Source of the DNA: Candidatus Eiseniibacteriota bacterium | Lineage (GTDB): Bacteria > Eisenbacteria > RBG-16-71-46 | Direction: 5' to 3' | Length of the DNA: 64,000 bases | Assembly (NCBI GenBank): GCA_044222065.1 | Contig: JBGAOA010000006.1 | Span: 1 to 64,000 of the forward strand | Shown: positions 24,982 to 63,301 of the stretch, piece after piece | How the letters are laid out: every line of letters starts with the position of its first letter | Position numbering within the stretch: the stretch's first letter is position 1 | Program-made: the position numbers and the translations under genes | Notes under the pieces: model-generated | What the model saw: only the letters and a program-made list of their open reading frames with translations | Database searches by the model: none | Told to the model about the DNA's origin: nothing

Positions 24982-27900
24982 TCAGTCGCCCGTCGCGGTG
25001 AAGGCCGCCCAGTAGAACGGGTGGAGCGTGAGCCCGCGCGCGCGGCGCGCCGCGATCACGGCACGGCACGCGTCGCGCATCGCACCCCCCGCGGTCGGAT
25101 CCGGGCTCGCGTAGAACGCGACCATCCACTGGCGCGTCGTCTCGTCCGCGATCGGCCACAGGCTCGCGACCACGCAGCGCGCTCCGGCGAGGTGGAACGC
25201 GCGCCGCATGCCGGACACGGCGGCGCGGCTCCAGCGCTCGGCGACCCCCGACTGGCACGCCGACAGCACGACGCGTTCGGTGCCCTCGAGGTCGAGCGTC
25301 GAGACCTCGTCGGCCGTGAGCCAGCCGTCGTCGCCGTCGTCCGTGTCGGCGCTCGCGCGATTGGCGCCCGCGAACGCGAGCCACGCCTCGCGCCCGATCC
25401 ACGGCGAGGCCGGCGGCGCGGGTGAGGGCGGAGTCGCGGGGCGCTTCGCCTTCGCGCGCTTCGTTTGCCCCGACGTCGCGGCCAACTCGCTCACGCCGCC
25501 GACGCCGCGCGCGGCGACGAGCGGCAGGCATCGGCGCCCGCCTCCTGCGAGAGCACGCCGTGCGTCGCGACGTGGATCGCGCGCCGGCCGTGCGCGAGCG
25601 CGCGGAAGCGCGCCTCGGTCGCCTCGGCGCCGAGCAGCAGTTCCGGCGTCGCCGCCGTGCGCGCCCGGCCAGAGCGCCGCGATCGCCTTCGCTTCCTCGC
25701 GCGCGCCCGGCAGGTCCGCGAGCGCGAGCGTTCCGTGCCCGCGGCCGCCGCCGGGAAGGCGCGCCGCGCCTGCGGTCGCGCGCGGCCTTCGGCGGCCGGG
25801 CCCGAGAAGTCGGGGTCGCCGACCGCGAGCAGCGTCCGCGATTCCCGACGGGTGCGCCGCGCGACCTGTGGCCGCGCCTGACGAGCACGCGGATCTGCCG
25901 ATCGGATTCGGCGAAGGCCACGCCCTTCGAAGAAGGAGCGCGAGCCACGGCAGGTCGCGCGTCAGGCTGACGCGACGACGAACACCTCGCGGACTCGCCG
26001 AGGGCCGCGGCGAGCGGATCCCACAGGTTCGCCTCGCCCGCGGCGCGCGCCGCGCGCTCCGGCCGCGCGCGCGCCGGCCGCGTTCGCCGGCAGGCGGCGT
26101 CGAGAGCCGGGAGAGCCATGCCGAGATGCGCGCCGTGATCGCGTCCAGCGGAACCGAGACGCACGAGGCGCGGGTCCGCGCCGCCGGCGCGCGCAACGAA
26201 GGCGAGCAGCTCGAAGTGCTCCTCGCCGCCGGCCGCGGCCACGTGGTCGTCGAGCGCCTCGCCCGGCTGGAGCGCGGCGAGCACCGGCGCGAGCGGCAGA
26301 GGGCCGACGCGTTCGCCGCGCGCCGCGGCGAGGCGCGCATAGTCGCGCTCGGCGTCGTCCGCGAGCGCCCGGCTCTCTTCGAACCGCATCCGCGCGCCGG
26401 GCGAGCCGTCGTCGAACGTGCCGGCGACGAGCCGCTGCGCGTGACGGCGCGCCGCGCCGACCCATCGCGCATGCGCGGCGGCGAGCGCCGAGTCGCCCGC
26501 GACCGACACGCGGCGCCGCGCCTCGATCGCCTCGCGCATGGCCCCGTGGCGCTGCAGCACGGCCTCCCACGCCGCCCGCACCTGGTCCGGCCGCGCCGGT
26601 TCGGCGAGCAGCGCGAGCGACTGCGAGGGATCCGCGGCGTCGTCTTCGTGCATCAGCGCCTCGCGGTCCGACAGCCCCTCGATCTCGAAGCGGAAGCGCT
26701 CGCGCGCCATGCCCTCGGCGATCGTCGCGTGGCGCCACGCGTCCGCGGCGCGACCCAGCCGGTGCTCCGCCTGGGCGCGCGTCTCGACGGCTTTCGGCCA
26801 GTTCTTGCTGCGTTCGAGACCCGTCGTGTCGGCCCACGCGTCCAGGGCGCGGCCGAGGCTGTCGGCGAACGCCGCGTCTGCCGGACCGCGCACGGTCTCG
26901 AAGAGCTGCACGGCGAGATCGAGGCGCGTCATGAGCGCCACGTCCGGCGCGCGCGCGGCGGCGAGCAGCCGCGTGCGCGCCTCGGCGTAGCGCCCCTCGT
27001 CGAGCTCGAGACCGACGCGCACGATCGTGCCGTAGGCGGCGATCGTCGGATCGGGATCGGGGGTGCGGGCGAGGATCTCATCCGCTTCGTCGAGCAGCGT
27101 GCGCGCCCGCGCCGCATCGCCGCCGCGTTCGCACGCGAGCGCGAGCGTGATGCGCTTGTGCACGAGCGACACGTGGGTGGGCGGCAGGCGCCGGGTCTCC
27201 ATGGCGAGCACGGAGTCGAGGTCCGCCCGGGCCCGCGCGAAGTCGCCGAGCGCGATGCGTGCCGCGCCGAGCGTCGAGCGGTACGAGATCGCATCGGGCG
27301 AGGCCTCGCCTTCGCGTTCGACGCACGTCGAGAGCGCACGCTCGCCGAGCTCGACCGCGCGCGCCGGGTTGCCCGCGCGCCGCTCGAGCGTCGCGAGCGC
27401 ATCGAGCGCCAGCTCGAGTCCGTGGAACGACGAGCGGGCGTTCGCTCCCGCGATGCGGACGGCGTTCTCGAGCTCGGCGCGCGCGCTGTCGAATTCGGCG
27501 AGTTCGCCGTACGAGCGTCCGAGTTCCGTGCTCAGCACGCCGAGCCCCGGCGCGTTCGGCCCGAGCGCGCGCTCGATGAGCAGGGCCGAGCGGCGGAACG
27601 CCGGGATCGAAGCCGCGTAGTCCGAGCGCGCGCGCTGCGCCTGCCCCTCGCGGAAGTAGAGGTTGCGCAGCACCGAGTCGCTCGGCGGCGCCTCGGCCAG
27701 CGCGATCGCGATCGCGCGTCGTACCTGCTCGAGCGCGCGATCGCCGTCCTGCAGGTCCACGCGCAGCAGCGACGCGGTCGAGAGCGCGCGAATGAGGGTG
27801 CGCGTGTCGGGCGGGCGCAGCCGTTCGGCGACCGCGATCGCGCGATCGGATGCCGCGAGCACGACGCCGTCCGAGAAGTCGCCGAGCGAACGCCCGTCGA

Positions 27901-28138
27901 GCGTGAGCCGCGTGAGCGCGCGCGCCAGCTCGACGGAATCCACGGGCGTCTCGCGCTCGATCGCCTCGACGAGCGCGCGACACGCGCGCACGGCGTCGGT
28001 CCAGCGGCCCGACGACTCGAAATGGGCGAGCGAGTCCCACGGCGCGGGCGACGCCGGCGGCGCCGCGGCGCCGAGGGCGACGACCGGGACCGCGAGAGCG
28101 AGCGCGGCGGCGAGTGCCGCGATGGATCGGAGCGTCAC
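24982..28138 (-). CDS. Secreted TPR + CHAT (caspase-like) protease, frameshifted in this sequence
   Basis: Signal peptide and TPR helices from 28138; CHAT motifs LWDPL, LLAVGDPDF, LPGAREEA, IHVATHG (from 25577), VLSACQSG, HPFYWAAF spread over all three frames between about 25500 and 26200. Confidence 0.8.
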
Positions 28139-28330: not shown

Positions 28331-30679
28331 CTACTCGCGCTTCACGATCGCGACGACGGCGCGCTCGGCGCCGAGTTCGGCGCGGCACAGGTAGAGGCCG
28401 GCGCGAACGGGCGCGCCCTCGTCGTCGCGACCGTCCCAGGCGAGCGATCGCACGCCGGCCTCGACCGGTCCGCGATGGATCGTGCGCACGCGGCGGCCGG
28501 CGAGATCGAACACCTCGACGCGTGCGACGCCCGCCTGCGGCGCGAGCAGCGCGATGCGGATCGCGCCCGCGAACGGATTGGGTTCGGCGCGCAGCGCGAG
28601 CGTGCGCGGCGCGCTCGACGGCGGCACGCCCACGGTCGGCAGTGCGACCACGTAGGCGTAGTTCGCGGGGAACGGCAGCGCGTTCACTCCGGCCGGCGGC
28701 GGGCCTCCCGACGACTGCGTCGCTTCGCCGGCAGGCGCGCTCGGCGGGGAGTCCGGCTCGGGTCCGATGGGAATCACGCCGTACCACACCTGGCTCGAAT
28801 CGCCGGGCGCCGCGCCGGGCGGCACCGGAACGTGTGCCGTGACCTTCACGTGCTGTCCCGCGGCGAGCGCGAGCGGCGCGCCCGAGTACGAGACACCCCA
28901 GCCGCGCGTGTCGAACGCCTGCGGCTGCAGGGTGACCGAAGCCGCGCCGTCGTTCGCGACGTCGAACGTGAGATCGGCGATCTGTCCCAGCTCGGCGCCG
29001 GCGTCTCCGTCCCACAGCACGAGCGGCCGCGGCACGCGATTCGCGGACTCGAAGCAGTCGCTCGCCCCGTGGGAGCCCGGACGATTCGACGCGAGGAAGA
29101 CGCGCTCGAGCCCGATGTCCGCGCTCGGTCCCGTGTCGTCGAGCGGGCCGTTGAGCGCACTCACGTTCACCGGCGATCCCCACGAGGCCTTCACCACGTC
29201 GCCGCCCTTCGCGGGCAGCGCGCCGCTCACGTTCTGCGACCAGACGTCGTAGCCGCCGAGCCCGCCTGGGCGATTCGACGCGTAGAGGAGCTGCGCGGGC
29301 TCGCCGTCGAGCGCCTTCGACACGCAGGGATCGCGCTCGTCGAACGGCGTGTTCACCGACGCGCCGAGGTTGACGCTCGCGCCCGGGTCATCCGTCGAGT
29401 CGATGGGCGCGACGTAGAGATCGAACCCTCCGCTGCCACCGGGCCGATTCGAGGCGAACAGCAGGTAGCCCAGGAACGCGTGCGGGCTCGTTTCGTCGGC
29501 GGACGTGTTCACGTTCGGCAGCGAGGTCACCGAATCGAACGTGAGTGGCGCGCTGTGGCCCGCGCGGTACAGATCGAAGCCGCCGGAGCCGCCGGGCCGA
29601 TTCGACGCGAAGTACAGCTCGGCATCCCCGATCCCTGAATTCGGCGCCAGTTCGTTGAAGGCGGAGTTCACGAGCGGCCCGCAGTTCACCGGACTCTTCC
29701 AGCGCGACTCGTCCGAACTCCACGTGACGTACCAGATGTCGTAGCCGCCGAAGCCACCTGCGCGGTTCGAGGCGAAGTAGAGCCGCCCCGCGCGCGAGCC
29801 GAACTCGGCGCCATCGGCGACGTCGGGGTCGCGATCGTCGGCCGCGCTCATCGCGGAGTCGCACAGCGACGACGGCGCTTCGAACACCGGCGGCGGATCG
29901 AAGATCGCGTCGAAGTGGCCGTCGTCGTGCTCGAAGCTGAACCAGTGCGACAGCTCGTGCTTCAGGATCATGTAGTAGTCCACGGTGCCGATCGGGCACT
30001 TCGCGTCGGCGTTCGTGATGAAGCCGTCGCCGTCGGTGTCGCTCGGGTAGCACCAGGTGCGGCCGCCGCCCGGCTCGTCCTTGATCCACAGGATCGCGGA
30101 CAGCGTGTCGTAGCGCGCCTTGAACTCGACCTTCGCGCCGACGTCGTTCACGCCCTTCTCGAGGTCGAACGACATCAGGCCGAGCGTGTTCGCGGGCACA
30201 CCGGGAATGAACCCGGACGGTTCGATCGCGACGTCGGCCGCGCCCTCGTCGTCGGTGAACCACGAGTCGTCCGTGATCGGGTCCTTCACGGGTTGACCCG
30301 GCGCGTGGAACGGCGAGGAATCGCCGTAGGCCTTGTCCATCGCCTTCTTCTCACCGGCCGACATCGAACGGCTCGACCTCGCGTGATCCTTCGCGTCGGA
30401 GAGATCGTGTCGCGGTCCCGCGGACGACACATGATCGTTCGTCTCGTTGCGGTTGCCCGTGCCGTTCGCGGCCGGGGCCTGGTCGTACATCACCCACTGC
30501 TTGAGCGCATAGCGCAGGCAGCGCTCCTGGTCGGCGCTCAGGTGGCCCTTGTAGATCTTGAACGGCTTCTTCGGCAGGTGCGCCTTCGCCATCTTCTGGG
30601 CGTGGGCGAGCGGCGCGAGCGCGGCGAGCAGCGTGGCGGCGAACAGCGCGTGACGAAGCATGCGAGCGGCGAATCGCAT
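28331..30679 (-). CDS. Secreted protein: metzincin-like zinc motif + PD40/TolB-like repeats + FlgD-Ig C-terminal domain
   Basis: Signal peptide; HELSHWFSFEH (29927-29959); five LYFASNRPGGxGGxD-type repeats; PNPF..FDLAGRRVR..WDGRDDEG..AGLY. Confidence 0.85.
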   Translation of the reverse strand: MRFAARMLRHALFAATLLAALAPLAHAQKMAKAHLPKKPFKIYKGHLSADQERCLRYALKQWVMYDQAPAANGTGNRNETNDHVSSAGPRHDLSDAKDHARSSRSMSAGEKKAMDKAYGDSSPFHAPGQPVKDPITDDSWFTDDEGAADVAIEPSGFIPGVPANTLGLMSFDLEKGVNDVGAKVEFKARYDTLSAILWIKDEPGGGRTWCYPSDTDGDGFITNADAKCPIGTVDYYMILKHELSHWFSFEHDDGHFDAIFDPPPVFEAPSSLCDSAMSAADDRDPDVADGAEFGSRAGRLYFASNRAGGFGGYDIWYVTWSSDESRWKSPVNCGPLVNSAFNELAPNSGIGDAELYFASNRPGGSGGFDLYRAGHSAPLTFDSVTSLPNVNTSADETSPHAFLGYLLFASNRPGGSGGFDLYVAPIDSTDDPGASVNLGASVNTPFDERDPCVSKALDGEPAQLLYASNRPGGLGGYDVWSQNVSGALPAKGGDVVKASWGSPVNVSALNGPLDDTGPSADIGLERVFLASNRPGSHGASDCFESANRVPRPLVLWDGDAGAELGQIADLTFDVANDGAASVTLQPQAFDTRGWGVSYSGAPLALAAGQHVKVTAHVPVPPGAAPGDSSQVWYGVIPIGPEPDSPPSAPAGEATQSSGGPPPAGVNALPFPANYAYVVALPTVGVPPSSAPRTLALRAEPNPFAGAIRIALLAPQAGVARVEVFDLAGRRVRTIHRGPVEAGVRSLAWDGRDDEGAPVRAGLYLCRAELGAERAVVAIVKRE

Positions 30680-48018: not shown

Positions 48019-48117
48019 ACGACGCGCGGTCGGCGCGTTTCGGGGTTGTCGGACGGCGGCCGGCCCCGCTAGCTTCGCCGCTCCCGGCGTTCCTCGCGCC
48101 GTGGTCCGGAGGTCTTC

Positions 48118-48711
48118 TTGTCCGACGCCCCCAAGCCCGCCGGCGCTCTCGAATCCACGGCGTTCCTGCTCGACCGGGTCCGCGGCGGGGACGATCGCGC
48201 CCGGGAACGCCTCGTCGCCCGCTTCCTGCCGCTGCTTCGCCGCTGGGCTCAGGGCCGGCTCCCGGCCCGCGCCCGCGGGCTCGCCGACACCGACGACCTC
48301 GTGCAGGTTTCGCTGCTCCGCGCGTTGGAGCACGTGAACGACTTCGAAGTCCGTCGCGAGGGGGCGTTCCTCGCCTACCTGCGCCGCATCCTCGTGAACG
48401 CCCTGCGCGACGAAATCCGCCGTTCGACCCGCCGCGCGAGCGAACCGCTCGACGGGAGGGACGTCGCTTCGCCCGACGCCTCGCTCATCGAGCAGCAGAT
48501 CGGCCGGGACGTCGTCGAGACCTACGAGGCCGCGCTCGAGCGGCTCACGGAAGCGCAGCAGGAGGCGGTGATCATGCGGCTCGAATTCGGGTACGGCTAC
48601 CCGCAGATCGCGGAGACGTTCGGTGACACGACGCCGAACGCCGTGCGGATGCTCGTCTCGCGCGCGCTCGTGCGGCTCGCCGAAGAGATGGAGAAGCACC
48701 GTGACGGATGA
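48118..48711 (+). CDS. ECF RNA polymerase sigma factor (Ser/Thr-kinase-associated type)
   Basis: GGAGG then TTG; region 2 (DTDDLVQ..FLAYLRRILVNALRD) and region 4 (LERLT..QQEAVIMR..YPQIAE..AVRMLVSRAL). Confidence 0.92.
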   Translation: MSDAPKPAGALESTAFLLDRVRGGDDRARERLVARFLPLLRRWAQGRLPARARGLADTDDLVQVSLLRALEHVNDFEVRREGAFLAYLRRILVNALRDEIRRSTRRASEPLDGRDVASPDASLIEQQIGRDVVETYEAALERLTEAQQEAVIMRLEFGYGYPQIAETFGDTTPNAVRMLVSRALVRLAEEMEKHRDG

Positions 48712-50476
48712 CGCGCTCACCGAATCGGCCGGCCGCATCGCCGACGGGCTCGAGGTGGATTGGGAACGGCTGCGGCGAGAGTCGCCCGAGGCCGCGTCGC
48801 GGCTCGAGGCGCTGACGCAGCTCGAGCGGCTCGCCGGCGCCTGGCGCGCGGCCGGCGCCGTGCCGGACGACCGTCCCTCCGAGCCCGCACTGTTCGCGTG
48901 GGGCGAGCTCGAAGCGCGCGAGCGGCTCGGCGAGGGCAGCTTCGGCGAGGTTTATCGCGCGTTCGATCCGGCGCTGCGCCGCGAGGTCGCGCTCAAGCTG
49001 CGCCGCGCCGACGCGAGCGAGTCCGGCACGCGGCGCGCGCTCGACGAAGCGCGCCACCTCGCGCGCGTACGGCACCCGAACGTGATCGCGATCCACGGCG
49101 CCGACGTGCACGACGGTCGCGTGGGCTTCTGGACCGACCTCGTGCTCGGCCGCACGCTCGACCAGGACCTGGCCGAGCGCGGCCCGTTCGGCGCGCGCGA
49201 AGCGGCGCTCGTGGGCTGCGATCTGTGCCGCGCGCTCGCGGCCGTGCACGCCGCCGGGCTCGTGCACGGCGACGTGAAGGGCGCGAACGTGCTGCGCGAG
49301 CACGGCGGACGCATCGTGCTCGCGGACTTCGGCTCGGGCCGCGACGCCGCGTCCGCGGGCGGGGGCGCCGTCGCGACCTCGCCGCTCGCCGCGGCGCCGG
49401 AGCTGCTGCGCGGCGATCCGCCGTCCGTCGCGAGCGATCTCTACGCGCTCGGCGCGCTGCTCTTCCGGCTCGCGAGCGGCCGGCATCCCTACGAGGCGGC
49501 GACGCTCGACGAGCTGCGCGCGAAACACGAGCGCGGCGAGCGCGCCTCGCTGCGCGCGCTCCGGCCCGACCTGCCGACGTCGTTCGTCGCCGCGGTCGAG
49601 CGCGCGCTCCAGGCCGCGCCCGCGGACCGCTTCGCGGACGCCGGCGCGTTCGAACTCGCGCTCGAGTCGTCGCTCGCCGCGCCGTCGGGCGTGTCCGCGG
49701 GCGCGCCCGCCGCGCCGCGCCGTTCGCACGCGCGGCTTCGCGCGGGGCTCGCCGCGGCTGCGGCGCTCGTCGCGGTCGTGCTCGCGGGCTCGCACTGCGC
49801 CGCTTCGGCGCGAACAGGCGCGCGAGACGCCGGCCTCGCCGCCGCTCGCCGCGGGCGAACGCGCGCGGGCGACGCCGGGGCGCCGCGCCCGGCGCCGCCG
49901 GCCGCGAACCTCGCGCCGCTCGCGCCGCCCGGCGCACACGTCACGTTGTGGCGCGGTCGCGACGGCGTGCGCACGCCGCTCGCCGACGGTGACGCGGTCC
50001 GGCCGGGCGACCACCTGTGGCTCGAGTACCGCGGCGACGAGCCGCTCCCCGTCTACGGGCTCGACGAAGACGACCGCGGCGAGACGTTCGCGCTCTTCCC
50101 GGTGCGCGGCACTGACGTGGCGAATCCGCTGCCCGCGCGCCGCGCCGCGCGGCTGCCCGGGTCGCGCGACGGCGCCCCTTTCGACTGGGTCGTGACGAGC
50201 GCGGGCGGTCACGAGCGCCTGCTCGTCGTGGCGTCGCGCGTCCCGCTCGCGGCACTCGAGAATCTGCTCGCGGCGGTGCCGGCGGCCGATGCCGGCGCGC
50301 CCGTCGCGTACGCGGGCGTGCCCGAGGGCGCGCTGCTCGCGCTGCGCGGCATCGGCGGCATGGCGCCGTCGGCGGCCGACGCGCGCGACGGCCGGCTCGC
50401 CGCGGTCGAGCGGGCGCTCGAGTCGCAGCGGAGCGCGGGCTACTGGGTGCGCCACTTCGTGCTCCACGCGCCGTGA
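48701..50476 (+). CDS. Membrane Hanks-type Ser/Thr kinase with C-terminal extracytoplasmic DUF4384-like domain
   Basis: GEGSFGEVY, VALK, HPNV, HGDVKGANV, DFG, APE, SDLYALG; hydrophobic segment near 49745-49790; GDAVRPGD.LWLE..VY..DED..G..LFP..G.ERLLVVASR. GTG start overlaps the sigma gene. Confidence 0.88.
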   Translation: MTDDALTESAGRIADGLEVDWERLRRESPEAASRLEALTQLERLAGAWRAAGAVPDDRPSEPALFAWGELEARERLGEGSFGEVYRAFDPALRREVALKLRRADASESGTRRALDEARHLARVRHPNVIAIHGADVHDGRVGFWTDLVLGRTLDQDLAERGPFGAREAALVGCDLCRALAAVHAAGLVHGDVKGANVLREHGGRIVLADFGSGRDAASAGGGAVATSPLAAAPELLRGDPPSVASDLYALGALLFRLASGRHPYEAATLDELRAKHERGERASLRALRPDLPTSFVAAVERALQAAPADRFADAGAFELALESSLAAPSGVSAGAPAAPRRSHARLRAGLAAAAALVAVVLAGSHCAASARTGARDAGLAAARRGRTRAGDAGAPRPAPPAANLAPLAPPGAHVTLWRGRDGVRTPLADGDAVRPGDHLWLEYRGDEPLPVYGLDEDDRGETFALFPVRGTDVANPLPARRAARLPGSRDGAPFDWVVTSAGGHERLLVVASRVPLAALENLLAAVPAADAGAPVAYAGVPEGALLALRGIGGMAPSAADARDGRLAAVERALESQRSAGYWVRHFVLHAP

Positions 50477-50535
50477 CGCGCGGTCGGCGCGCGTTCGCTC
50501 TTTCTCGCGACCGCCCGTGCCGATAGTCTGACGAC

Positions 50536-53500
50536 ATGCGTGCCCGACTGCTCCCGACCCTGCTCGCCGGACTCGCGCTCGTCGCGAGCGTGGCCGATGC
50601 GAAACCGCGCGCCGCGGCGCCCTTCGACTCGGCCTTATTCCGGAGCGTGGGGCTGCGCGAGCCGTTCCGGCCCTTCGCCGCCGCCGCGCGCTTCGGCAGC
50701 GTCGACAGCCTCGCGCGGCTCGAGCTCGGCCGGCTCACGGCCGCCCGTACGCGCGATTCGCTCGTGGTGGCCCGTGCGCTCGTGGACGTCGTCGAGACCG
50801 GGTGCCTGAACGGACGTGCGCGCGAACCGCTGCTGGCGGCCCAGCTGCAGCGCGCGCTCGCGATCCATCGCGCCCATCCGGGGCCGGATTCGCTGATCCT
50901 CGCGCGTTCGTGGCGCGTGGCGGGCGAACTCGCGCGGCGCAACCGAGACTTCGACGAAGCGCTGCGGCTCGCCAACGCGGCGCTGCGCGTGTTCGAGCGC
51001 GCGCTGGCGCCGATGGACCTCGACGTCGGATCGGCCTCACGGCTCGTCGCCACGATCGGGACGAACCTCGGTCGAGGCGACTTCGAATCGCCGGCGCGCC
51101 GGGCCGTCGAGATCGCCGAGCATCATTTCGGCCCCGGTGACCCGCGAACGCTTCCGGCGCTCTCGACGCTCGCGGGCCAGCAGAACGTGCGCGGCGACCA
51201 GGTGCACGCGCTCGGCACGCTCGAGCGCGTGCTGGCGCTCGCCGAGCGCGCCTATGGTCCCGAGCACACCGAGACCGATCGCAGCCGATACAACGTCGCG
51301 GTCGTGGCGATGCGCGTCGGCGACTACGTGCGGGCGCGCGCGCTGCTCGATCGCGTCGTCCGGTCCGAGTCCGGACGCGCGCGCGTGGATTCGGCGCGGC
51401 TCTCGAACGCCGTCAGCGCGTACCTCGAAGTGCTGAACGACCTCGGCGACTTCGACGAGGCGCTCGCGCTGCACGGGCGCTTCGGCGATGCCTCCGAGCG
51501 CGGCCTGCCCCCGGGCGATCCGGATCTCGCGCGCTACCGTCACCAGCTCGCGCGCACTCTCGTGGGCTGCGGACGCGCGCGCGCGGCGATCGCGCTGTTC
51601 GACAGCGCGATCGTGACCGAGGCTCGGATCACCGACAGTCTCGCGGCGCTGCCGATCTTGTTCGAGCGCGCCGCGGCGTTCCGCATCGCGGGCGACGGCC
51701 CCGGAGCGCTGCGCGCGGTGGATCTCGCCGGGACGCTCGCCGACCGGGCGGGGGAGCGCGCGCCCTCGTACCACGAGGTCGGACTGCTGTGGGCGCGCTG
51801 CCTCGACGACGCGGGCCGCCCGCGCGAGGCGGTCGCGCGGCTCGAGTCGTCGCGCCGGAGCGCGGAGCGCGCGCTGGGCCCTCGCAATCCGATCCTCGCG
51901 CGGATCCTCGGCGAGCAGGCGCGCGCGCTCACCGCCCTCGGTGATTCGCGCGCGTTCGGCGTCGCGCTCGAAGGCGCCGACCAGAGCGCGGAACTGCTTC
52001 GCACCGCCGCGCGCGGCTTCCCGGACCGCGAGGCTCTGCTCTACGCGAGCGGCCTCGGGCTCGGGCTCGATCCGCTGCTCGAGGTCGCGGCCGGCGGCGG
52101 GCTCGACGCCGCCCAGCGCCGCGCGGCGCTCGACCGCGTGGTCGCGGCGCGCTCGCTCGTGCTCGACGAGGTCGCCCGGCGCACGCGCGCGGCGCGGGCC
52201 GCGCGTGATCCGCGCGCCCGCGCACTGCTCGACTCGCTCGGCGAAGCGCGCGCCGTGCTCGCGCGCTGGCTCGTGCGCGCCGAGTCGGGCCTCGGCAGGA
52301 TTCGCTGCGCCGCGAGGCGCGCGTGCGCGCGGAGCGGTTCGAGCGCGAGCTCGCCGCGCTCGGGCTCGAGCCGGCGTCGTCGGCGACGGGCTCGCCGCTC
52401 GACCGGCTGGCGTCCGGCGACGCGCTCGTCTCGTTCGTCGAGTACGCGGCACCCGCGGGCGGGTCCGCGACCGAACGCCGGCTGCTCGCGTTCGTGACGC
52501 GCGCGGGGTCGGCGCCGGCGCTCTTCCTGCTCGGCCGCGCTCCTCACCGTGGACTCGCTCGTCGCGCGCTGGCGCGGACGTCGCCGCGGGCACGGGCGCG
52601 AAAGACCTCGCGGCCGCCGAGCGCCGTGCGCGCACGAGCGGCGCCGCGCTGCGCGCGCGTGTGTGGGACCCGCTCGCGGCCGCGGTCGCGGATGCGGGGC
52701 GCGTCGTGCTCGTCCCCGACGGCGCGCTGCACCTCGTGGATTTTTCCGCGCTGCCGTCCGCGGCCGGCGGGTACCTCGCGGACCGTCCGGCGCTGCTCGC
52801 GCGCCTCGGAGCCGAGCGCGATCTCGATGCCGTGCCCGCGGACGACGCGGGACGCGGGCTGCTCGCGCTCGGCGGCGCGGACTTCGACCTCGAATCCGGC
52901 GGCGACGCCGGGCCGGCGGCGCTCCGCAGTGGGGGAGTCGCCTGCGAGCGCTTCCGCGACGTGAAGTTCTCCGCGCTGCCCGCGACGCGGCTCGAGGTCG
53001 GGGACGTCGCCTCACGCTGGCGCGCCCGCGGCCTCAAGGCGACGGAGCTCACGGGCGCGGACGCGAGCGAAACGCGTCTCAAGCAGCTCGCGCCGTCGTG
53101 CGGTGCGCTGCACCTCGCGACGCACGGTTTCTTCCTCGGCGGCGAGTGCGCGCGATCCTCGTCCGCGACGCGCGGCATCGGCGGGCTCGCCCCATCGGAC
53201 GCGGTTGCGGCGAGCAGCGCGACGCCGAACGCGGCGAACGCGCTCCGGCTCGCGGGGCTCGCGCTCACGGGCGCGAACCGGCGCGGTTCGGGCGCCGGCG
53301 AGGACGGCGTGCTCACGGCGGAGGAGATCTCGGCGCTCGACCTCTCGGGCGTCCACGAAGTCGTGCTGTCGGCGTGCGACAGCGGTGTCGGCGACATCGC
53401 CGCGGGCGAAGGCGTGCTCGGGCTTCAGCGCGCGTTCCGCATCGCCGGCGCCCGCTCGCTCGTCATGAGCCTGTGGCCGGTCGAGGACGCCGCGACGCGA

Positions 53501-53659
53501 GCGTGGATGGACGCCTACTACGACGCGCGGCTCGCGGGCGGCGCGGGCGTCGCGGCGTCCGTGCGCGCGGCGGACCGCGCGCGGCTCGCCGCGCTGCGGC
53601 GCGCGAAGTCGCCGACGCCTCCGCACCTCTGGGCGGGGTTCATTCCGCTCGGGGAGTAA
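50536..53659 (+). CDS. Secreted TPR + CHAT (caspase-like) protease, frameshifted in this sequence
   Basis: Signal peptide; TPRs (GPEHTET, GPRNP); CHAT motifs VWDPL, VPDGALH, LPATRLE, LHLATHG, VVLSACDSG, GEGVLGLQRAF, SLWPV, LWAGF; about three frame changes at 52290-52580. Confidence 0.85.
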
Positions 53660-55185: not shown

Positions 55186-55344
55186 GGCGGGGGAGAGTAG
55201 GACAGCGCGCGCGACGAGGAAAGGCGGCGGCGCGCGCCCTCCGCGCGATCTTCCGACCGAGTGTCCCCCGCGTGACGGGGAATGCGTTGAGGGAGTGGGC
55301 GCGTTCGCCCGTTCCCGCCATCGCCCGCTCCGGAGGTGTCCCCG

Positions 55345-57942
55345 ATGCGCCCGACGATCCCGCTTCGCCGCACGTTTTCCTTTGCGCTGTTCGCCGCGCT
55401 CCTCGCCGCGTCCCCCGCCCGCGCCGCCTTCGTGGACACCGGCTTCGACGTTCCGCTGCTCAATCCGACCGCGTCGGCGTGGGGCGACTTCGACCGGGAC
55501 GGCGATCTCGACTTCGTGCTCACCGGCCAGGACGGCACGCCGCCGTACACGCTGCGCGCTTTCGTGTTCCGCAACGACGCCGGCGCGTTCACCGACGCCG
55601 GCGCGGGCCTCACGGGGCTCGCGAACGCCGCGGCCGCGTGGGGCGACTACGACAACGACGGCGATCTCGACCTGCTGATGTGCGGGAACTCCTCGTCGCT
55701 CGGCGACGTGCCGACGACGCGGCTCTACCGGAACGACGGCGGCGCGTTCACGAGCCTCGGCGCCGCGGGACTTCCCGAGGTGCGCTCCGGATCGGTGGCG
55801 TTCGGCGACTACGACCGCGACGGCGACCTCGACGTGCTGATCACGGGCTATCGCACGGTGCCGAGCTCCTCGCTCGTCGGCGCGATCTACCGCAACGACG
55901 GCGGCGTGTTCACCGACGCCGGCGCCGGACTGCCGCCGCTCTTCTACTCGTCGGCGGCGTTCGGCGACTACGACGCGGACGGCGACCTCGACCTCGCGAT
56001 CCAGGGCACGAATTCGTCGGTGAACCTCACCCGCATCTACCGAAACGACGGCGGCACGTTCACGAACATCGCGGCGCCGCTCGTCGGACAGGAGGTCGGC
56101 GACGTCGCGTGGGTGGACTTCGACGGCGACGGCGACCTCGACTTGTCGTCCACCGGGTTCGACGGCGCCGTGGAGGGGACGCGGCTCTATCGCAACAACG
56201 GCGGATTCACATCCGTCGCGACCGGGCTGCCGGGCGCTTCGCGTGGCGCGGCGTGGGGCGACTTCGACAACGACGGCGATCCCGATCTCGCGCTGACGGG
56301 CATCGGCACGACGCCGTCGCTCTCGCGCATCTACCGCAACGACGGCGGCGGCGCGTTCGCCGACATCGCCGCGGGAATCGCGGGGACGCGCGCGTGCACG
56401 CCGGCGTGGGCCGACTTCGACGGCGACGGCGACCTCGACCTGCTGATCGCGGGCGGCGACGGCACGGGCGTGCGGAAGCTCTACCGCAACACGGGCGCGA
56501 GCGTGAATCACCCGCCGCAGCCGCCGTCGACGCTGATCGCGACCGAGTGCGTGGACGGCGAACTGAAGCTCCGCTGGGGCGTCGGATCCGACCTCGAGAC
56601 GGCGGGGCCGGGGCTCACCTACAACCTGCGCGTCGGCACGACGTGGGGCGGGAACGAGATCGTGTCCTGTCCGGCCGACCCGGCGAGCGGACAGGCCCAG
56701 CTCGCGCAGCCGGGCAACGTCGGTCACGCGACGAGCGTCACGCTGGCGCTGCCGCCCGGCACCTACTACTGGACGGTGCAGACCGTGGACGGCGCGTTCC
56801 TCGGTTCGGACTTCGCGCCCGTGCACGTTGTGCAGGCGCCGTCGGTGGACGGCGCGTGGAACGCGGCCGAGGGCCCGCCCTCCGTCACGCAGTCGCTGCA
56901 GACCGGGTTCGGCGATGCGTCGCTCGGACTGCCCGACTTCGCGAACGGCTCCGAGCTCGACGGCGCGTACGCGCGGCTCGACGACTGCGCGCTGCACCTG
57001 TTCCTGCCGGGGAACCTCGAATCCAACTTCAACAAGCTCGAGCTGTTCTTCGACACGCTGCCCGGCGGCCAGAACCAGCTGCGCGGGGACAACGCGAACG
57101 TGGACTTCGACGGACTCAACCGCATGGGCGACGACGGCAGCGGGAACGGGCTGCGATTCGATCCCGCGTTCGAGCCGGACTTCTACGTCACGTTGAGCGG
57201 CGGCGACGCGGGCGGCGACTACACGCTGTTCGCGAGCTGGGCGGAGCTGCTGAGCGCGGGCGGCGGACTCGGACGCTACCTCGGCAGCACGACGCCGCCC
57301 TCCAACGGCGCGCTCGCCGGCGGCGACAATCCCGACGGCATCCTCGCGACGATCGACAATTCGAACACGGCCGGCGTGACGGCCGGTACGGGCGGCGCGT
57401 CGGGCTCTGGAGTCACGACCGGCGTCGAGCTCGTGATTCCGCTCGCGTCGCTCGGAAACCCGACGGGCTGCTTCGAGGTGTGCGCATTCGTGAACGGCTC
57501 GGGGCACGACTTCGTCTCGAACCAGGTCCTCGCCCCGCTCGTCGCTCCGCAGGGCAACCTCGGCGAACCGCGCAACGTGGACTTCGGCCGCTACGCGGGA
57601 GAGCAGTGGTTCTCGGTGTGCCCGGGCGCGACCGCGGACGTTCCGGCGGGCCCCGCCGCCTCGGCGACGCGCGGACGACTCTCGGCGTTCCCGAATCCGA
57701 TGCGCGCGTCGTCGCTCGTGCGCTTCGAACTCGCGCGTGCGGGGGAGGCGAGCGTCGAGCTGTTCAACGTGCAGGGGCGGCGCGTGCGGCGGCTCGTATC
57801 CGGCGCCTTCGACGCGGGTCCGCACCAGGCGCTCTGGACCGGCACGGACGACTCGGGCCGCGCGCTCCCGAGCGGCGTCTACTACGCGCGTCTCCTCGCG
57901 CCGGGCGAGCGCGCGTCGCACGCGCTGATCCTGCGGCGCTGA
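55345..57942 (+). CDS. Secreted FG-GAP/VCBS repeat protein with FN3-like domain, uncharacterised beta domain and FlgD-Ig C-terminal domain
   Basis: Seven [WF]xD[FY]DxDGDxD repeats; GTYYWTVQTVD; FPNP..FNVQGRRVR..WTGTDDSG..SGVYYARL; GGAGG before the ATG at 55345. Confidence 0.9.
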   Translation: MRPTIPLRRTFSFALFAALLAASPARAAFVDTGFDVPLLNPTASAWGDFDRDGDLDFVLTGQDGTPPYTLRAFVFRNDAGAFTDAGAGLTGLANAAAAWGDYDNDGDLDLLMCGNSSSLGDVPTTRLYRNDGGAFTSLGAAGLPEVRSGSVAFGDYDRDGDLDVLITGYRTVPSSSLVGAIYRNDGGVFTDAGAGLPPLFYSSAAFGDYDADGDLDLAIQGTNSSVNLTRIYRNDGGTFTNIAAPLVGQEVGDVAWVDFDGDGDLDLSSTGFDGAVEGTRLYRNNGGFTSVATGLPGASRGAAWGDFDNDGDPDLALTGIGTTPSLSRIYRNDGGGAFADIAAGIAGTRACTPAWADFDGDGDLDLLIAGGDGTGVRKLYRNTGASVNHPPQPPSTLIATECVDGELKLRWGVGSDLETAGPGLTYNLRVGTTWGGNEIVSCPADPASGQAQLAQPGNVGHATSVTLALPPGTYYWTVQTVDGAFLGSDFAPVHVVQAPSVDGAWNAAEGPPSVTQSLQTGFGDASLGLPDFANGSELDGAYARLDDCALHLFLPGNLESNFNKLELFFDTLPGGQNQLRGDNANVDFDGLNRMGDDGSGNGLRFDPAFEPDFYVTLSGGDAGGDYTLFASWAELLSAGGGLGRYLGSTTPPSNGALAGGDNPDGILATIDNSNTAGVTAGTGGASGSGVTTGVELVIPLASLGNPTGCFEVCAFVNGSGHDFVSNQVLAPLVAPQGNLGEPRNVDFGRYAGEQWFSVCPGATADVPAGPAASATRGRLSAFPNPMRASSLVRFELARAGEASVELFNVQGRRVRRLVSGAFDAGPHQALWTGTDDSGRALPSGVYYARLLAPGERASHALILRR

Positions 57943-60024: not shown

Positions 60025-63000
60025 ATTCCGCGCGAGTACGAGCCGTCGGGTTTCTTCGCGCTCCGCGCGCCCCTGTTGCCGTTCACGGACTGGCTCGCGT
60101 GGGGCGACGGCGCCTCCGCCGCGGACGCATCCGAGGGCGCGTGGCGCGCGGCGCGCGACCGCGGACGCGCGTGGCTCTCGAGCCGTCTCGAGGACCCCGT
60201 CGTGCGCGAGGCGATCGCGCTCGCGTCGCCCGACCTCGATGCGCGCATCGGCGCCTGGCGCGCCGATCCCGACGCCGAGCCCGGCGTCGAGGCGGGGCTC
60301 GTCAAATACGTCTCGCGCGCGTGCGTGCGCGCGACGCCGTTCGGCACGTTCGCGGCGACCTCGCTCGGCGCGCTCGGGAGCACGACGCGCCTCGCCTTGC
60401 CCGCGCGCGACGGATCGCGCCGCCACACGCGGCTCGACATGGACTTCCTGAGCGAGCTCGTGGCGCGGCTCGCGTCGGACCCGGAGGTGCGCGCGCGCGT
60501 GCCGTTCGCGCCGAACTCGAGCCTCTACCCGGCGGGCGACGCGCTGCGTTACGCCGAGGCGCGCCGCGTCGCCGGGGCGCGCGCGTACTTCCTCGTCGAG
60601 GTCGAGGCGAACGACGCCGTCACGGCCGCGCTCGAGGCGTCGAAGGGCGGGGCGACCCTCGAGGCGATCGCGCGCGCGCTCGCCGATCTCGGCGTCGCGC
60701 TCGAGGACGCGCGCGAGTTCGCGGGACAGCTCGCCGACGCGCAGCTGCTCGTCGCCGACCTCGGCCCGCTCGTGACCGGCGCGGACGCGCTCGAGGACCT
60801 GATCGCGCGCCTCGCGCGCCACGCGCCAGAGCATCCGGCTCACGCGGGCCTGCGCGAGGCGCGCGCCGCGCTCGCGGCGCTCGACGCGCGCGGACTCGAG
60901 CGCCGCGCGCGTCGTACGACGCACTCGCGGAGCGGCTCCGAACGCTCGCGCCCGTCGATCCGGCCCGGCTCGTCCAGGTGGACCTCTATCGCGGTGGCGA
61001 TCCGCCGGAGCTCGACCGCGGCCTCGTGCACGAGCTGCTGCACGCGGCGGAGACCGTGATCGCGCTGTTCGCGAAGGGGCACGCCGATCCGCTCGCGGCG
61101 TTTCGCGACGCGTTCGAGCGGCGCTATGGCGACCGCGAGGTGCCGCTCGTCGAGGCGCTCGACGAGGAGCTCGGCATCGGCTTCGAACCGAGCTCCGGGC
61201 CCGCGAGCGATCCGTCGCCGCTGCTCGTGGGACTGCCGTTCACGCCGCCCGAGGAGGAAGGTCGCGTGCCGTTCGGCTACCGCGCGCAGTTCGTGCAGTG
61301 GAAGCTCGCCGAGGCGATCGCCGCCGGGGCCGAGGAGCTGCGGCTCGATCCGCGCGAGCTCGAACGTTTCGCCGATCCCGACGCGCCGGGACTCGGCGGC
61401 GCGTTCCACCTGCTCGCCTCGCTGCTCGCGCCCGACGCCGCGGATACGGACGCGCCGCGGGCGCTGTTCGATTCGGCGGCCGGTCCGTCGGGCGCGCGGC
61501 TGCTCGGGCGGTTCGGCTTCGGGGACCCCGCGCTCGCCGAGCACGTGCGGGCGCACGTGCGGCGCGAGGAGGCGCTGCGGCCCGACGTCGTCTACTTCGA
61601 ACTCGTTCACCTGCCCGAGGGCCGCGTCGGAAACATTCTCGCGCGTCCCGTGCTCCGCGAATTCGAGCTCGCCTACCTCGGCGCCTCCGGCGCGCCGCCC
61701 GATCGCACGATCTCCGTGCTCGACCTCACCGTGCGGCTCGAGGGCGGGCGGATCGCGCTGCGATCGCGCGCGCTCGGACGCGAAGTCCGGCCGCGGCTCT
61801 CGTCGGCGCATTACGCGGGCGCGCGCAGCCTCGGGCTCTACCGGTTCCTCACCGCGCTCCAGGCCGAGGGTGTCGTCGAGGGCGCGGCCTGGCACTGGGG
61901 GCCGTTCGAACACCAGCCGCGGCTGCCGCGCGTGCGCATCGGGCAGGTCGTGCTCGCGCGCCGGCAGTGGAACGCGCGTCGCGACGAAGCCCGCCGCCTG
62001 CGCGAGCACTCGGGCCACGCGGCGTTCCTCGAGGCGGGCCGGTGGCGCGCGGCGCGCGACGTGCCGCGGTTCGCGGGCCTCGTGCACGCGGACAACGTGC
62101 TGCCCGTGGATTTCGATCAGCCGCTGTCGGTCGCGGCGTTCCTCGACGCGCTCAAGGGCCGCGACGGCTTCTCGCTCGTCGAGCTGTTCCCGGGCGCGCG
62201 CCCCGACGCCGCGCGCTCGCCCGAAGGCGGCTTCACGAACGAAGTCGTGATCCCGGTCGTGCGCGCGCCGGCCTCCGCGGCGGCGGCGCGCGAACCGGCG
62301 CGCGGCGGTCACGTCGATCGCGGGGCCCTCGGCCCGGGCTTCGCGCCCGGTTCGGAATGGCTGAGTGCGAAGCTCTACGGCGGTCCGAAGGGCGTGGATC
62401 GCGCGCTCGTCGAGGCGCTGCGCCCGGCGCTCGCGACGCTCGTGGACGCGGGCGACGTGCGGCGCGTCGAGGCGCGCGTCAGTGCGGGCTCGCGACGCTC
62501 GTGGACGCCGGCGACGTGCGGCGCGCGTTCTTCGTGCGCTACGCCGATCCGGGCTGGCACGTGCGCGTGCGGCTGCACGGCGAGCCCGCGACGCTGCTCA
62601 CACGCGCGCTGCCGGCGCTGCGCGCCGCCGCCGCGCCGCTCTTCGACGCCGGGGTGCTGCACGCGCTCGAGCTCGCGCCCTACCGGCGCGAGATCGTGCG
62701 CTACGGCGGGCCGGCCGCGATCGAAGCGTGCGAGGCGCTGTTCCACCACGACTCGCTCGCCGCGCTCGACGTGCTCGCCGGTGCGCCCGGGGAGCGCGGC
62801 CTCGAGGCGCGCTGGCGCCTCGCGCTCGTCGGCACCGACCGGCTGTACGCCGACTTCGGACTCGACGACGGCGCGCGCCACGAACTCTCGGGCCGGCTCG
62901 CGCGCGCGTTCGCCGCCGAGTTCCACGCCGACTCCGCCGCCCGTCGCGCGATGATGGCGCGCTATCGCGAGGTGCGCGCGGCGCTCGCGGCGCTGCTCGA

Positions 63001-63301
63001 CGGCGACGCCGGCGGCGACGACGCGCTCGCGCACGGCCTGCGCCGGATCGAGGCGCGCTCGCGCGCGAACGCCGCGCCGATCGAGGCGCTGCGCGCCCTC
63101 GATCGCGATCGTCGGCTCGGCGTGCCGCTCGAGGAGATCGTCGCGAGCCTCGCGCACATGCACGCGAATCGCGTGCTGCGCTCGTCGCAGCGCGCGCAGG
63201 AAATGGTGATCCACCACTACCTCGAGAACCTCTACGCCGCCCGGCGCGCGCGCGCGGCGCACGGCGTCGCCGCGACACCCGGCGCGGGAGGGACGCCGTG
63301 A
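60025..63301 (+). CDS. lanB: Class I lanthipeptide dehydratase (LanB-type, with C-terminal elimination domain), frameshifted in this sequence
   Basis: FFALRAPLLP, REAIALASP, KYVSRACVRATPFGTFA, VPLVEALDEELGIG, GPSGARLLGRF, GNILARP, PRLSSAH, LPRV, DNVL, NEVVIP, GSEWLSAKLY, FFVRYADPGWHVRVR, YRREIVRYGG, E.LF..DS, HMHANR; frame changes near 60905 and 62470. Confidence 0.9.
62429..62525 (+). repeat. 38-nt direct repeat (1 mismatch) with a 59-nt offset inside lanB
   Basis: GCTCGCGACGCTCGTGGACGC[G/C]GGCGACGTGCGGCGCG at 62429 and 62488. Confidence 0.9.

Follow-up and report, generated by a model that had tools for sequence, protein, structure and literature searches.

Contig JBGAOA010000006.1 of a Candidatus Eiseniibacteriota bacterium (GenBank assembly GCA_044222065.1) carries, within its first 64,000 nucleotides (the whole stretch analyzed here, called the window below), three genes encoding a sigma factor of the extracytoplasmic function (ECF) class, a Hanks-type Ser/Thr kinase with a predicted periplasmic domain (the ectodomain), and a tetratricopeptide repeat (TPR)-CHAT protease with a signal-peptide-like start. 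The ectodomain and the protease each contain a copy of one short motif that begins with Arg-Gly. What is new here is that the strongest couplings of this motif are to the kinase's own DUF4384 domain, which has an immunoglobulin (Ig)-like fold, and that the pocket residues so identified also predict the copy on the protease. An earlier note on this DNA, made from the sequence alone, had described three co-oriented and tightly linked genes, and the coordinates agree: the sigma gene (48118-48711), the kinase gene (48701-50476), and the TPR-CHAT gene (50536-53659) lie on one strand in the same direction, and the GTG start of the kinase overlaps the sigma stop codon. The main features are as follows.

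48118-48711, + strand: ECF sigma factor, 197 amino acids (aa), TTG start, without a C-terminal extension (Sigma70_r2, E 8e-13; r4_2, E 5e-10; TIGR02937 above cut-off)
48701-50476, + strand: Hanks-type Ser/Thr kinase, 591 aa, comprising an N-terminal helical region, the kinase domain, one transmembrane (TM) helix, and a periplasmic DUF4384 domain with an insertion (Pkinase, E 2e-32; DUF4384, E 1.7e-6)
49943-50473, + strand: ectodomain, an Ig-like beta-sandwich (DUF4384) whose final strand follows a motif-bearing insertion of ~65 residues (AlphaFold model of the ortholog at locus L076, pLDDT 84.7)
50015-50221, + strand: putative peptide pocket, alignment columns 26, 50, 74, 83, 86, 92, and 94 (coevolution with motif positions +2, +3, and +4)
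Pocket residues, + strand: Leu 50015, Phe 50087, Gly 50159, Trp 50186, Thr 50195, Glu 50213, Leu 50219
50345-50371, + strand: kinase copy of the motif, RGIGGMAPS (sequence; AlphaFold pLDDT <50 at residues 136-146 of the L076 ortholog)
50536-53659, + strand: secreted TPR-CHAT protease, about 1040 aa in one frame (TPR_12, E 9e-25; CHAT, E 4e-56)
53123-53377, + strand: catalytic His (53123) and Cys (53375) (aligned CHAT domains)
53171-53197, + strand: protease copy of the motif, RGIGGLAPS (sequence; pLDDT <50 at residues 252-276 in the model of the L076 ortholog)

The two copies were confirmed at these positions and are identical at 8 of 9 residues; the different synonymous codons that the earlier note had pointed to are borne out at the last three shared positions. 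The string RGIGG.APS occurs only these 2 times in the six frames of the 4.21-Mb genome, and RGIGG alone occurs 28 times. In the wider family, R-G-[IV]-G-G is near-invariant in kinase and protease; the APS tail is not family-wide and is the pair-specific part. Of 116 ectodomains, 98% have the motif Arg, as do 66/66 CHAT domains, and in both it sits in loops that are otherwise variable. Because this collection had been found with a profile that contained the motif, metagenomes were then searched with a motif-free DNA pattern, and the motif appeared in 94 of 97 distinct tails from that search, versus a mean of 9 after shuffling. It is also present in 109 of 120 further protease homologs.

Beyond the conserved core, the copies match within pairs. 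Across 57 neighboring pairs (with the window's own pair counted, but without rows that lack the Arg in the motif column and without three kinase motifs that are frameshifted), positions +1 to +8, counted from the Arg, hold 255 identities versus 180.1±6.8 in shuffled pairs, and 0 of 20,000 shuffles reach the real value. The flanks of the same pairs hold no such excess (49 versus 48.6 for the ten residues before the Arg; 55 versus 49.5 for +9 to +15). With one pair retained per cluster, Z is 10.2, 7.4, 5.6, and 3.1 at 47, 33, 25, and 10 clusters. Disjoint sister operons favor their own partner by 13:2 with 13 ties (flanks, 10:11), and the own protease is preferred over that of the nearest neighbor by 27:16 with 14 ties. 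Synonymous codon agreement stands at chance level (0.451 versus 0.459), and DNA copying between the neighboring genes is rejected on that result. An independently found set of 14 new pairs, two of which are identical, gave 72 identities versus 56.4±3.5 after removal of one pair already present in the first set. The match also extends to unlinked genes: 26 kinases without a neighboring CHAT gene, compared with CHATs elsewhere in the same genome (2 kinases skipped, 40 CHAT regions fetched), gave 128 versus 98.3±5.5, and rare variants such as IGLL, IGSL, and IGGT are found in both the kinase and its unlinked protease. The proposal that selection acts on the motif at the protein level is thus supported, by an own-pair match that neither flanks nor synonymous codons share, and the question of whether the motif is kept and covaries across homologous operons can be answered in the affirmative.

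Which surface reads the motif? Mean-field direct coupling analysis (DCA) of 325 ectodomains (276 effective) placed the column pair 94/+2 first and 86/+4 second of 14,714 pairs, with 50/+3 at rank 5, 26/+2 at rank 8, 74/+4 at rank 20, and 84/+6 at rank 35. The first of these looks like size compensation: Phe94 occurs with Val at +2 in 123 of 151 Ile/Val cases, and Leu, Ile, or Val at 94 occurs with Ile in 131 of 142. In the same manner, Thr86 pairs with Gly at +4 and an aromatic residue at column 50 with Gly at +3. In each of three data sources 94/+2 ranks 1 or 2 (86/+4 ranks 7, 1, and 1453), shuffling of the motif block abolishes all pocket couplings, and among 162 disjoint sister pairs the direction of change was concordant by 9:0, 13:0, 6:1, and 5:2 for the four column pairs tested. 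The coupled columns surround a near-invariant WxVTSxGGxE hairpin (Trp83 in 100% and Glu92 in 99% of the 325), and strand order together with the DCA contacts suggests that they form one groove.

The same columns carry information about the protease. In 70 kinase-protease pairs, which are not independent of one another, Phe94 in the kinase goes with Val at protease +2 (25/29 versus 5/30), Thr86 with Gly in the protease copy (44/60 versus 2/10), and an aromatic column 50 with Gly at protease +3 (59/62 versus 2/8). Within 161 CHAT domains, motif positions +1 to +5 found no partner above Z 2.5. Cofolding of CHAT domain and ectodomain (the L076 pair, both entered as alignments) scored 0.01 in two runs without control complexes and is used neither way. 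The motif lies in low-confidence loops of both AlphaFold models and is therefore not buried, as the earlier note had required. Of that note's interpretation, protein-level selection, the shared compartment, and covariation are supported; from the coevolution data, the motif appears to be read by the DUF4384 domain of the kinase itself and not by the active site of the protease.

We then considered what the three proteins are and how widely they occur. At E 1e-5, the ectodomain profile finds a match in 91 of 206 genomes from the phylum, a tally that takes in this genome, the unpublished genome G073, and some weak DUF4384-only matches; in a second phylum, 301 genomes were sampled and 11 have a match (the unpublished G362 included). 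Among 1.84 billion representatives it recovers 776 clusters (50% identity, E up to 1e-30); the named relatives are mostly Candidatus Eisenbacteria, with one record each from Acidobacteria, Rhodanobacteraceae, and Gemmatimonadetes. Gene order was followed in 114 loci, made up of 100 of the ~150 match places in the phylum (picked by score and flank) and 14 loci of named relatives. Within this genome (G000) there are three full copies of the ectodomain as well as partial modules; modules beyond the window lie on contigs C31, C50, C130, C10, C61, and C116. Kinase motifs elsewhere in G000 read RGVGGL (C31), RGMGGI (C50), and RGVGGV (C10), and protease motifs read RGFGGI (C50), RAVGAV (C10), and RGVGGV (C61); the C116 protease is without a motif. 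The further features to which we refer are the following.

48289-48291, + strand: Thr58 in the D-T-D-D box of region 2, candidate phosphoacceptor (Thr in 98/98 family sigmas)
48701-48895, + strand: conserved N-terminal region of the kinase with a DGxxVDW motif, in no Pfam family (conservation among relatives)
49745-49800, + strand: TM helix of the kinase (hydropathy)
50536-50601, + strand: signal-peptide-like N terminus of the protease (by eye and hydropathy window)
52294-52571, + strand: protease frameshift region, most likely an assembly error (comparison with contigs of other runs)
52943-53149, + strand: Cys pair (Cys 52943 and 53147), a predicted disulfide joining two loops beside the active site (co-occurrence, coupling)

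The catalytic Lys, Glu, His, Asp, and Asn of the kinase and the Asp of DFG are kept in 103/103 intact relatives, and a TM helix precedes the ectodomain in 100 of the 103 (19-residue hydropathy of at least 1.6). The ectodomain scores 28.5 bits as DUF4384 (PF14326) against a Pfam cut-off of 27, and the Atlas clusters that match it are 69-95% DUF4384. Fold searches with the ectodomain returned generic Ig-like matches (best Z 7.9, root mean square deviation 3.6, 126 aligned; none with Z of at least 8), Foldseek gave no match at E 0.001, and Csx30 is absent from the 50 fold matches listed, a relation to it still being possible; PDB sequence searches with the ectodomain and CHAT alignments gave nothing useful. 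The N-terminal region is possibly a sigma-docking or anti-sigma-like part, judging by its conservation; in the Atlas it matched unnamed clusters only, with zf-HC2 weak at 0.76. In some longer kinases of 789-1063 aa (P0112, P0143, P0012, P0042, and P0119), the TM helix and the DUF4384 module at the terminus are separated by additional extracytoplasmic domains. At L001 (G000:C7:46409-46642), a stand-alone DUF4384 protein has a signal-peptide-like start and then RGLGV ahead of the first strand, which may be a related use of the motif.

The sigma gene lies upstream of the kinase in 95 of the 114 loci, and several of the other 19 loci reach a contig edge. Kinases without an upstream sigma match, several with ample flank, occur at L088, L090, L091, L092, L103, L107, L135, and L138, which suggests a divergent sigma factor or a module split over the genome. 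In the 98 family sigmas, the four positions of the acidic box are conserved as D 79%, T 100%, D 50%, and D 100%, and Thr14 is Ser or Thr in 98/98. With regard to the kinase-linked ECFs of planctomycetes (ECF59, 61, 62, and 217), the best NCBIfam match is TIGR02984, at 79 bits against a cut-off of 184.

The protease is a clear CHAT enzyme (PF12770, 191 bits against a cut-off of 24), with fold matches to Csx29 (Z 27.2), separase (Z 24.6), and DdvA (Z 21.4). Hydrophobic starts like its own recur in many relatives, and this supports export; together with the TM helix of the kinase, such starts also support the earlier suggestion of a shared compartment for protease and ectodomain. Among 61 proteases, 41 have both members of the Cys pair, 18 have neither, and 2 have a single Cys; the pair is the top coupling in the CHAT alignment, and the joint occurrence suits an exported protein. 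The catalytic His and Cys and an acidic pair, Glu (52994) and Asp (53486), are present in 169/169 aligned CHAT domains. The motif begins 16 residues past the catalytic His, and the invariant Asp lies 37 residues after the catalytic Cys, in a place that, from its spacing, would be comparable to that of D2151, the residue with which separase reads a P1 Arg according to the available text of PMC9729208. The invariant Asp and Glu therefore suggest, and only suggest, an Arg at P1. The other active-site loop holds, at 52925-52945 and just ahead of the first disulfide Cys, a further motif in which Arg precedes a small residue (LRSGG, frequently RG), with Arg in 77% of 66 sequences; this may be another site of processing. 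A second secreted TPR-CHAT protein of the same subfamily is encoded at 24985-28138 on the - strand, with several frameshifts and RGVGGVSEL in its post-His loop; it has no adjacent kinase, and the gene before it encodes a FlgD-tailed beta-propeller. Kinase-carrying genomes also contain CHAT paralogs whose post-His loop is short and lacks the motif (L285, L286, L297, L299, L300, L317, and L318), and these may act without docking or serve other receptors.

In this assembly the protease gene is split over three frames, and the breaks fall near 52294 and 52543-52571. Other public runs gave contigs with an extra base at 52294 (runs X1, X3, and X15), one base fewer at 52543/52544 (X1 and X15), and two extra bases at 52571 (X1, X2, and X15), and a single 839-base contig covers all three break sites. 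The net +1, -1, and +2 bases restore one frame, so the breaks are most likely assembly errors; intact orthologs are open frames of 1037 and 1046 aa. In a three-frame view there may also be a compensated frameshift pair just after the TM helix of the kinase, a stretch over which the comparison with other runs listed no long piece. Contigs of the RNA run X15 overlap parts of the kinase and protease genes, and contigs cannot show transcription.

The observations outlined so far fit a proposed mechanism in which the three genes form a signaling module with a peptide-in-pocket switch, thrown when a cut after the Arg unmasks a tethered ligand. We give this proposal an even chance of being correct. 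By sequence, the kinase spans the membrane with its DUF4384 domain outside, and the TPR-CHAT protein is exported and has its catalytic residues intact. Both R-G-[IV]-G-G-hydrophobic copies track, statistically, residues of the groove near the WxVTSxGGxE hairpin. We posit that the TPR arm responds to a cue outside the cytoplasm (our guess is a protein of the envelope or of an invader) and that the protease would then cut after the Arg both in the kinase insertion and in its own loop. The new N terminus, Gly-Ile-Gly-Gly, would dock in the groove as a tethered ligand with its free amine on the invariant Glu92. The cut loop of the protease would fit the same groove, and it could thereby keep the enzyme on its cognate receptor or cross-link receptors. 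The liganded ectodomain would activate the kinase and lead to phosphorylation of the sigma factor, probably at Thr58. Peptide and pocket drifting together would keep the paralogous modules of one cell apart. A pair match that starts at the Arg, ends at +8, and has no counterpart upstream is expected if the piece after the cut is what matters. A cut after the Arg is favored because the shared part starts at an invariant Arg-Gly, because the partner protease has its dyad and acidic pair in 169/169 domains, and because the Asp of separase reads a P1 Arg. The broader claim of a bacterial protease-activated receptor kinase, with an Arg-specific caspase-like enzyme, a tethered agonist, a second copy on the protease, and a drifting code that insulates modules, we advance more tentatively, as somewhat short of an even bet. 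If it is true, DUF4384 would be a receptor for protease-made N termini, possibly on anti-sigma factors and Csx30 as well.

Several points weigh against the cut-and-dock mechanism. Among the 87 loci with at least 3.8 kb downstream, a CHAT gene lies within the fetched stretch in 57 and in none of the other 30, and 11 of the 120 homologous proteases are without the motif. The CHAT set has half as many members as that of the kinases, so its missing couplings are weaker evidence. With kinase +2 held fixed, column 94 adds nothing detectable on the protease copy (p 0.34 and 0.27). A tree test on supported branches left 5-8 independent pairs in the large set and 2-4 in the paired set, with directions that mostly agree; it was underpowered, and no result reached 0.05 (median p 0.125 for 94/+2 and 86/+4; p 0.5-1 from kinase to protease). 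By a crude any-change correlation over sister pairs, 94/+2 ranks 5884 of 12,603, and 86/+4 is seventh. The Leu at -1 is weakly coupled to Gly89 (rank 51), as might be expected if an uncut loop lay in the groove, and the partner of Glu92 could be the side chain of the Arg rather than a free amine. AlphaFold did not place the uncut motif in the groove (pLDDT <50). Known bacterial TPR-CHAT proteases cleave after Met or Leu, as far as the available text of PMC11506125 goes, and the same Asp motif occurs in CHATs of this genome that lack the motif loop.

Some of these points fit a different arrangement better. An intact kinase loop, Arg included, could sit in the receptor's own DUF4384 groove and keep the receptor off until the protease loop displaces it and docks, after which the enzyme would cut elsewhere (e.g., in the stalk above the membrane) or act by clustering. 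Identical pocket couplings would be expected, the weak -1 Leu/Gly89 coupling would be explained, the invariant Glu92 and Asp44 could bind the Arg, and the proposed model of DdvA, in which CHAT cuts a membrane-proximal linker (PMC11506125, in the portion available), offers a precedent. We nevertheless consider this arrangement unlikely, if well worth keeping in view: a disordered loop in which an Arg precedes a small residue, beside an invariant protease dyad, has the look of a cut site, the model holds no uncut chain in the groove, and the positions before the Arg are not common to the two copies. Could both copies simply fit the prime-side subsites of the same protease, as substrate and pseudo-substrate (the earlier note's reading), with the protease copy an autocleavage or autoinhibitory site? 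Pair-specific identity would follow, and the protease loop, 16 residues past the catalytic His and pinned by the predicted disulfide, is well placed for such a role. Yet the motif couples to the Ig domain of the kinase and to nothing in the CHAT domain, and the non-prime side, which separase reads (ExxR; available text of PMC9729208), is not common to the copies; we regard this explanation as improbable.

The logic could also run in reverse, with the ectodomain a bait or inhibitor that quiets the protease, the N-terminal region of the kinase an anti-sigma factor, and phosphorylation secondary; release of the sigma factor would then follow when the complex is lost or when a foreign protease specific for Arg makes a cut. 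A sigma factor with an acidic core-binding box may need no phosphorylation, the kinase N-terminal region is conserved, many kinases have no adjacent protease, and DUF4384 has been described on putative ECF25 anti-sigmas (PMC7826278) and on some Csx30 anti-sigmas (bioRxiv 2022.08.17.504292), each source being available in part. This too we hold to be quite improbable, given kinase catalytic residues in 103/103, a sigma Thr58 in 98/98, an N-terminal region that matches no anti-sigma family, and neighborless kinases that still match a CHAT elsewhere in the genome. Chance, GC-rich composition, shared ancestry, or DNA copying is by now largely refuted as a source of the match. The proteins are Gly/Ala/Arg-rich, RGIGG alone is found 28 times in the six frames, and related genomes are not independent; against this, the flanks hold no excess, codons are no more alike than in shuffled pairs, the signal holds after clustering to 25 groups, the motif is in 94/97 real tails versus 9/97 shuffled ones, and unlinked genes match too. 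Homotypic amyloid-like pairing of the two copies, as in RHIM-type signaling, was also weighed but not adopted, since the motif is a single short one that opens with an invariant Arg and since its coupling is to a folded domain.

How does the module compare with known systems? In the available text of PMC8999054 and PMC7826278, kinase-controlled ECFs comprise ECF43 (EcfK/PknS and EcfP/PknT) and the predicted groups ECF59, 61, 62, 217, 267, and 283. As in those groups, the gene after the ECF gene encodes a membrane Hanks kinase, an anti-sigma factor is not separately encoded, and the region 2 box has a conserved Thr. The earlier note had cited EcfK and EcfP as precedents. ECF43 is defined by loss of the DAED box with a Thr at the third position (STTA in EcfP; PMC8999054, in part), whereas the module's sigma factor keeps its acidic DTDD box and therefore is not of the ECF43 type; its invariant Thr lies one position before the EcfP site. 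Unlike the kinase-linked ECFs, the module also has a DUF4384 ectodomain with a motif insertion and a dedicated protease partner, and the descriptions available from these two sources include no protease input. A kinase-DUF4384 protein is listed as an architecture in the available part of bioRxiv 2025.01.12.632604.

On the protease side, DdvA-DdvS of Myxococcus xanthus likewise has, upstream of an ECF sigma factor, a periplasmic TPR-CHAT whose dyad is His-Cys, and signal-induced autoproteolysis of DdvA has been proposed (PMC11506125, as far as available). As described there, DdvA is a single membrane anti-sigma factor with a zinc-binding domain that works through RseP; the module's CHAT is instead a separate gene product with a signal-peptide-like start, and its TM transducer is a kinase. 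Type III-E Craspase (Csx29, Csx30, RpoE) also combines a TPR-CHAT protease with an ECF-tied substrate, and DUF4384 is the C-terminal domain of one Csx30 group (bioRxiv 2022.08.17.504292, in part). By the same partial account Craspase differs in being cytoplasmic and RNA triggered, in cutting after Met or Leu, and in having an anti-sigma output; no Cas family was found among the 35 window segments scanned, and no array search was made. The Haliangium SAVED-CHAT/PCaspase cluster (PCc-sigma, PCi, PCk) brings together a CHAT protease, a sigma factor, and a Ser/Thr kinase (bioRxiv 2023.06.23.546230), but in the portion available it is a nucleotide-triggered cytoplasmic cascade that kills the cell, with no shared motif described, and PCk was neither cloned nor tested in that study. 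Kinase-linked ECFs, the control of an ECF by the CHAT domain of DdvA, Csx29/Csx30, and the Haliangium cluster are thus, to the extent that these sources are available, already published. We regard the module as a real and widespread variant of protease- and kinase-controlled ECF signaling, on which later ECF group descriptions (PMC7826278, available in part) may bear. A literature search, with most subscription papers outside its reach, returned no description of an ECF/kinase/TPR-CHAT module.

Outside bacteria, animal protease-activated receptors belong to the G-protein-coupled class, and in plant PROPEP/PEPR signaling a separate precursor releases the Peps. The best reading of the module resembles both in that a cut after an Arg would unmask a peptide that binds an ectodomain. 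Unlike those systems, with which there is no homology, receptor and protease here would both carry the ligand. The coevolution data support a peptide-pocket contact; a tethered-ligand receptor would call, in addition, for a cut that unmasks the binding N terminus.

Gene neighbors of the module differ among loci, and nothing tied it to defense. For kinases without a CHAT match, 59 candidate genes downstream were considered as a CHAT substitute, and no recurring replacement emerged; they were housekeeping and mixed genes, along with five peptidases from different families and three TPR genes truncated at contig ends. An autoregulatory promoter was sought and rejected: 96 upstream regions gave no outstanding common motif, and a sigma-70 scan gave no site. 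By eye, TTGTCG-18-TAGCTT at 48046-48075, upstream of the sigma gene, is a weak housekeeping-type promoter below the scanner threshold. Between kinase and protease, at 50475-50495, lies a GC-rich hairpin with a T-rich tail (one found versus 1.3 expected by chance). As to a defense context, PADLOC matched the generic kinase domain only, with no PADLOC model for the protease, sigma factor, or ectodomain. Elsewhere in the window, large secreted proteins with a terminal FlgD Ig-like domain are encoded at 16321-20493, 21342-22556, 28340-30649, and 55336-57942, and lantibiotic dehydratase genes at 60034-63235 (Lant_dehydr_N in two frames, Lant_dehydr_C) may be the start of a ribosomally synthesized and post-translationally modified peptide (RiPP) cluster at the window end. 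At L076:2100-3400, a long tandem peptide repeat of RPPRTFDRGPRREGDA-like units stands ahead of an RsmB-like reading frame.

What, then, would these observations mean for the family? They offer a candidate function, that of peptide receptor, for the uncharacterized DUF4384 domain, and they predict, for a large family of secreted CHAT proteases, both a substrate and the site of the cut. They also propose an input mechanism for kinase-controlled ECF sigma factors, few of whose signals have been identified. The residue pairs named above would let specificity be swapped by changing two or three residues. Should the tethered-ligand reading be true, bacteria would share the working principle of animal protease-activated receptors, built from unrelated parts, and orthogonal pairs of peptide and pocket could be put to use as sensors of proteases.

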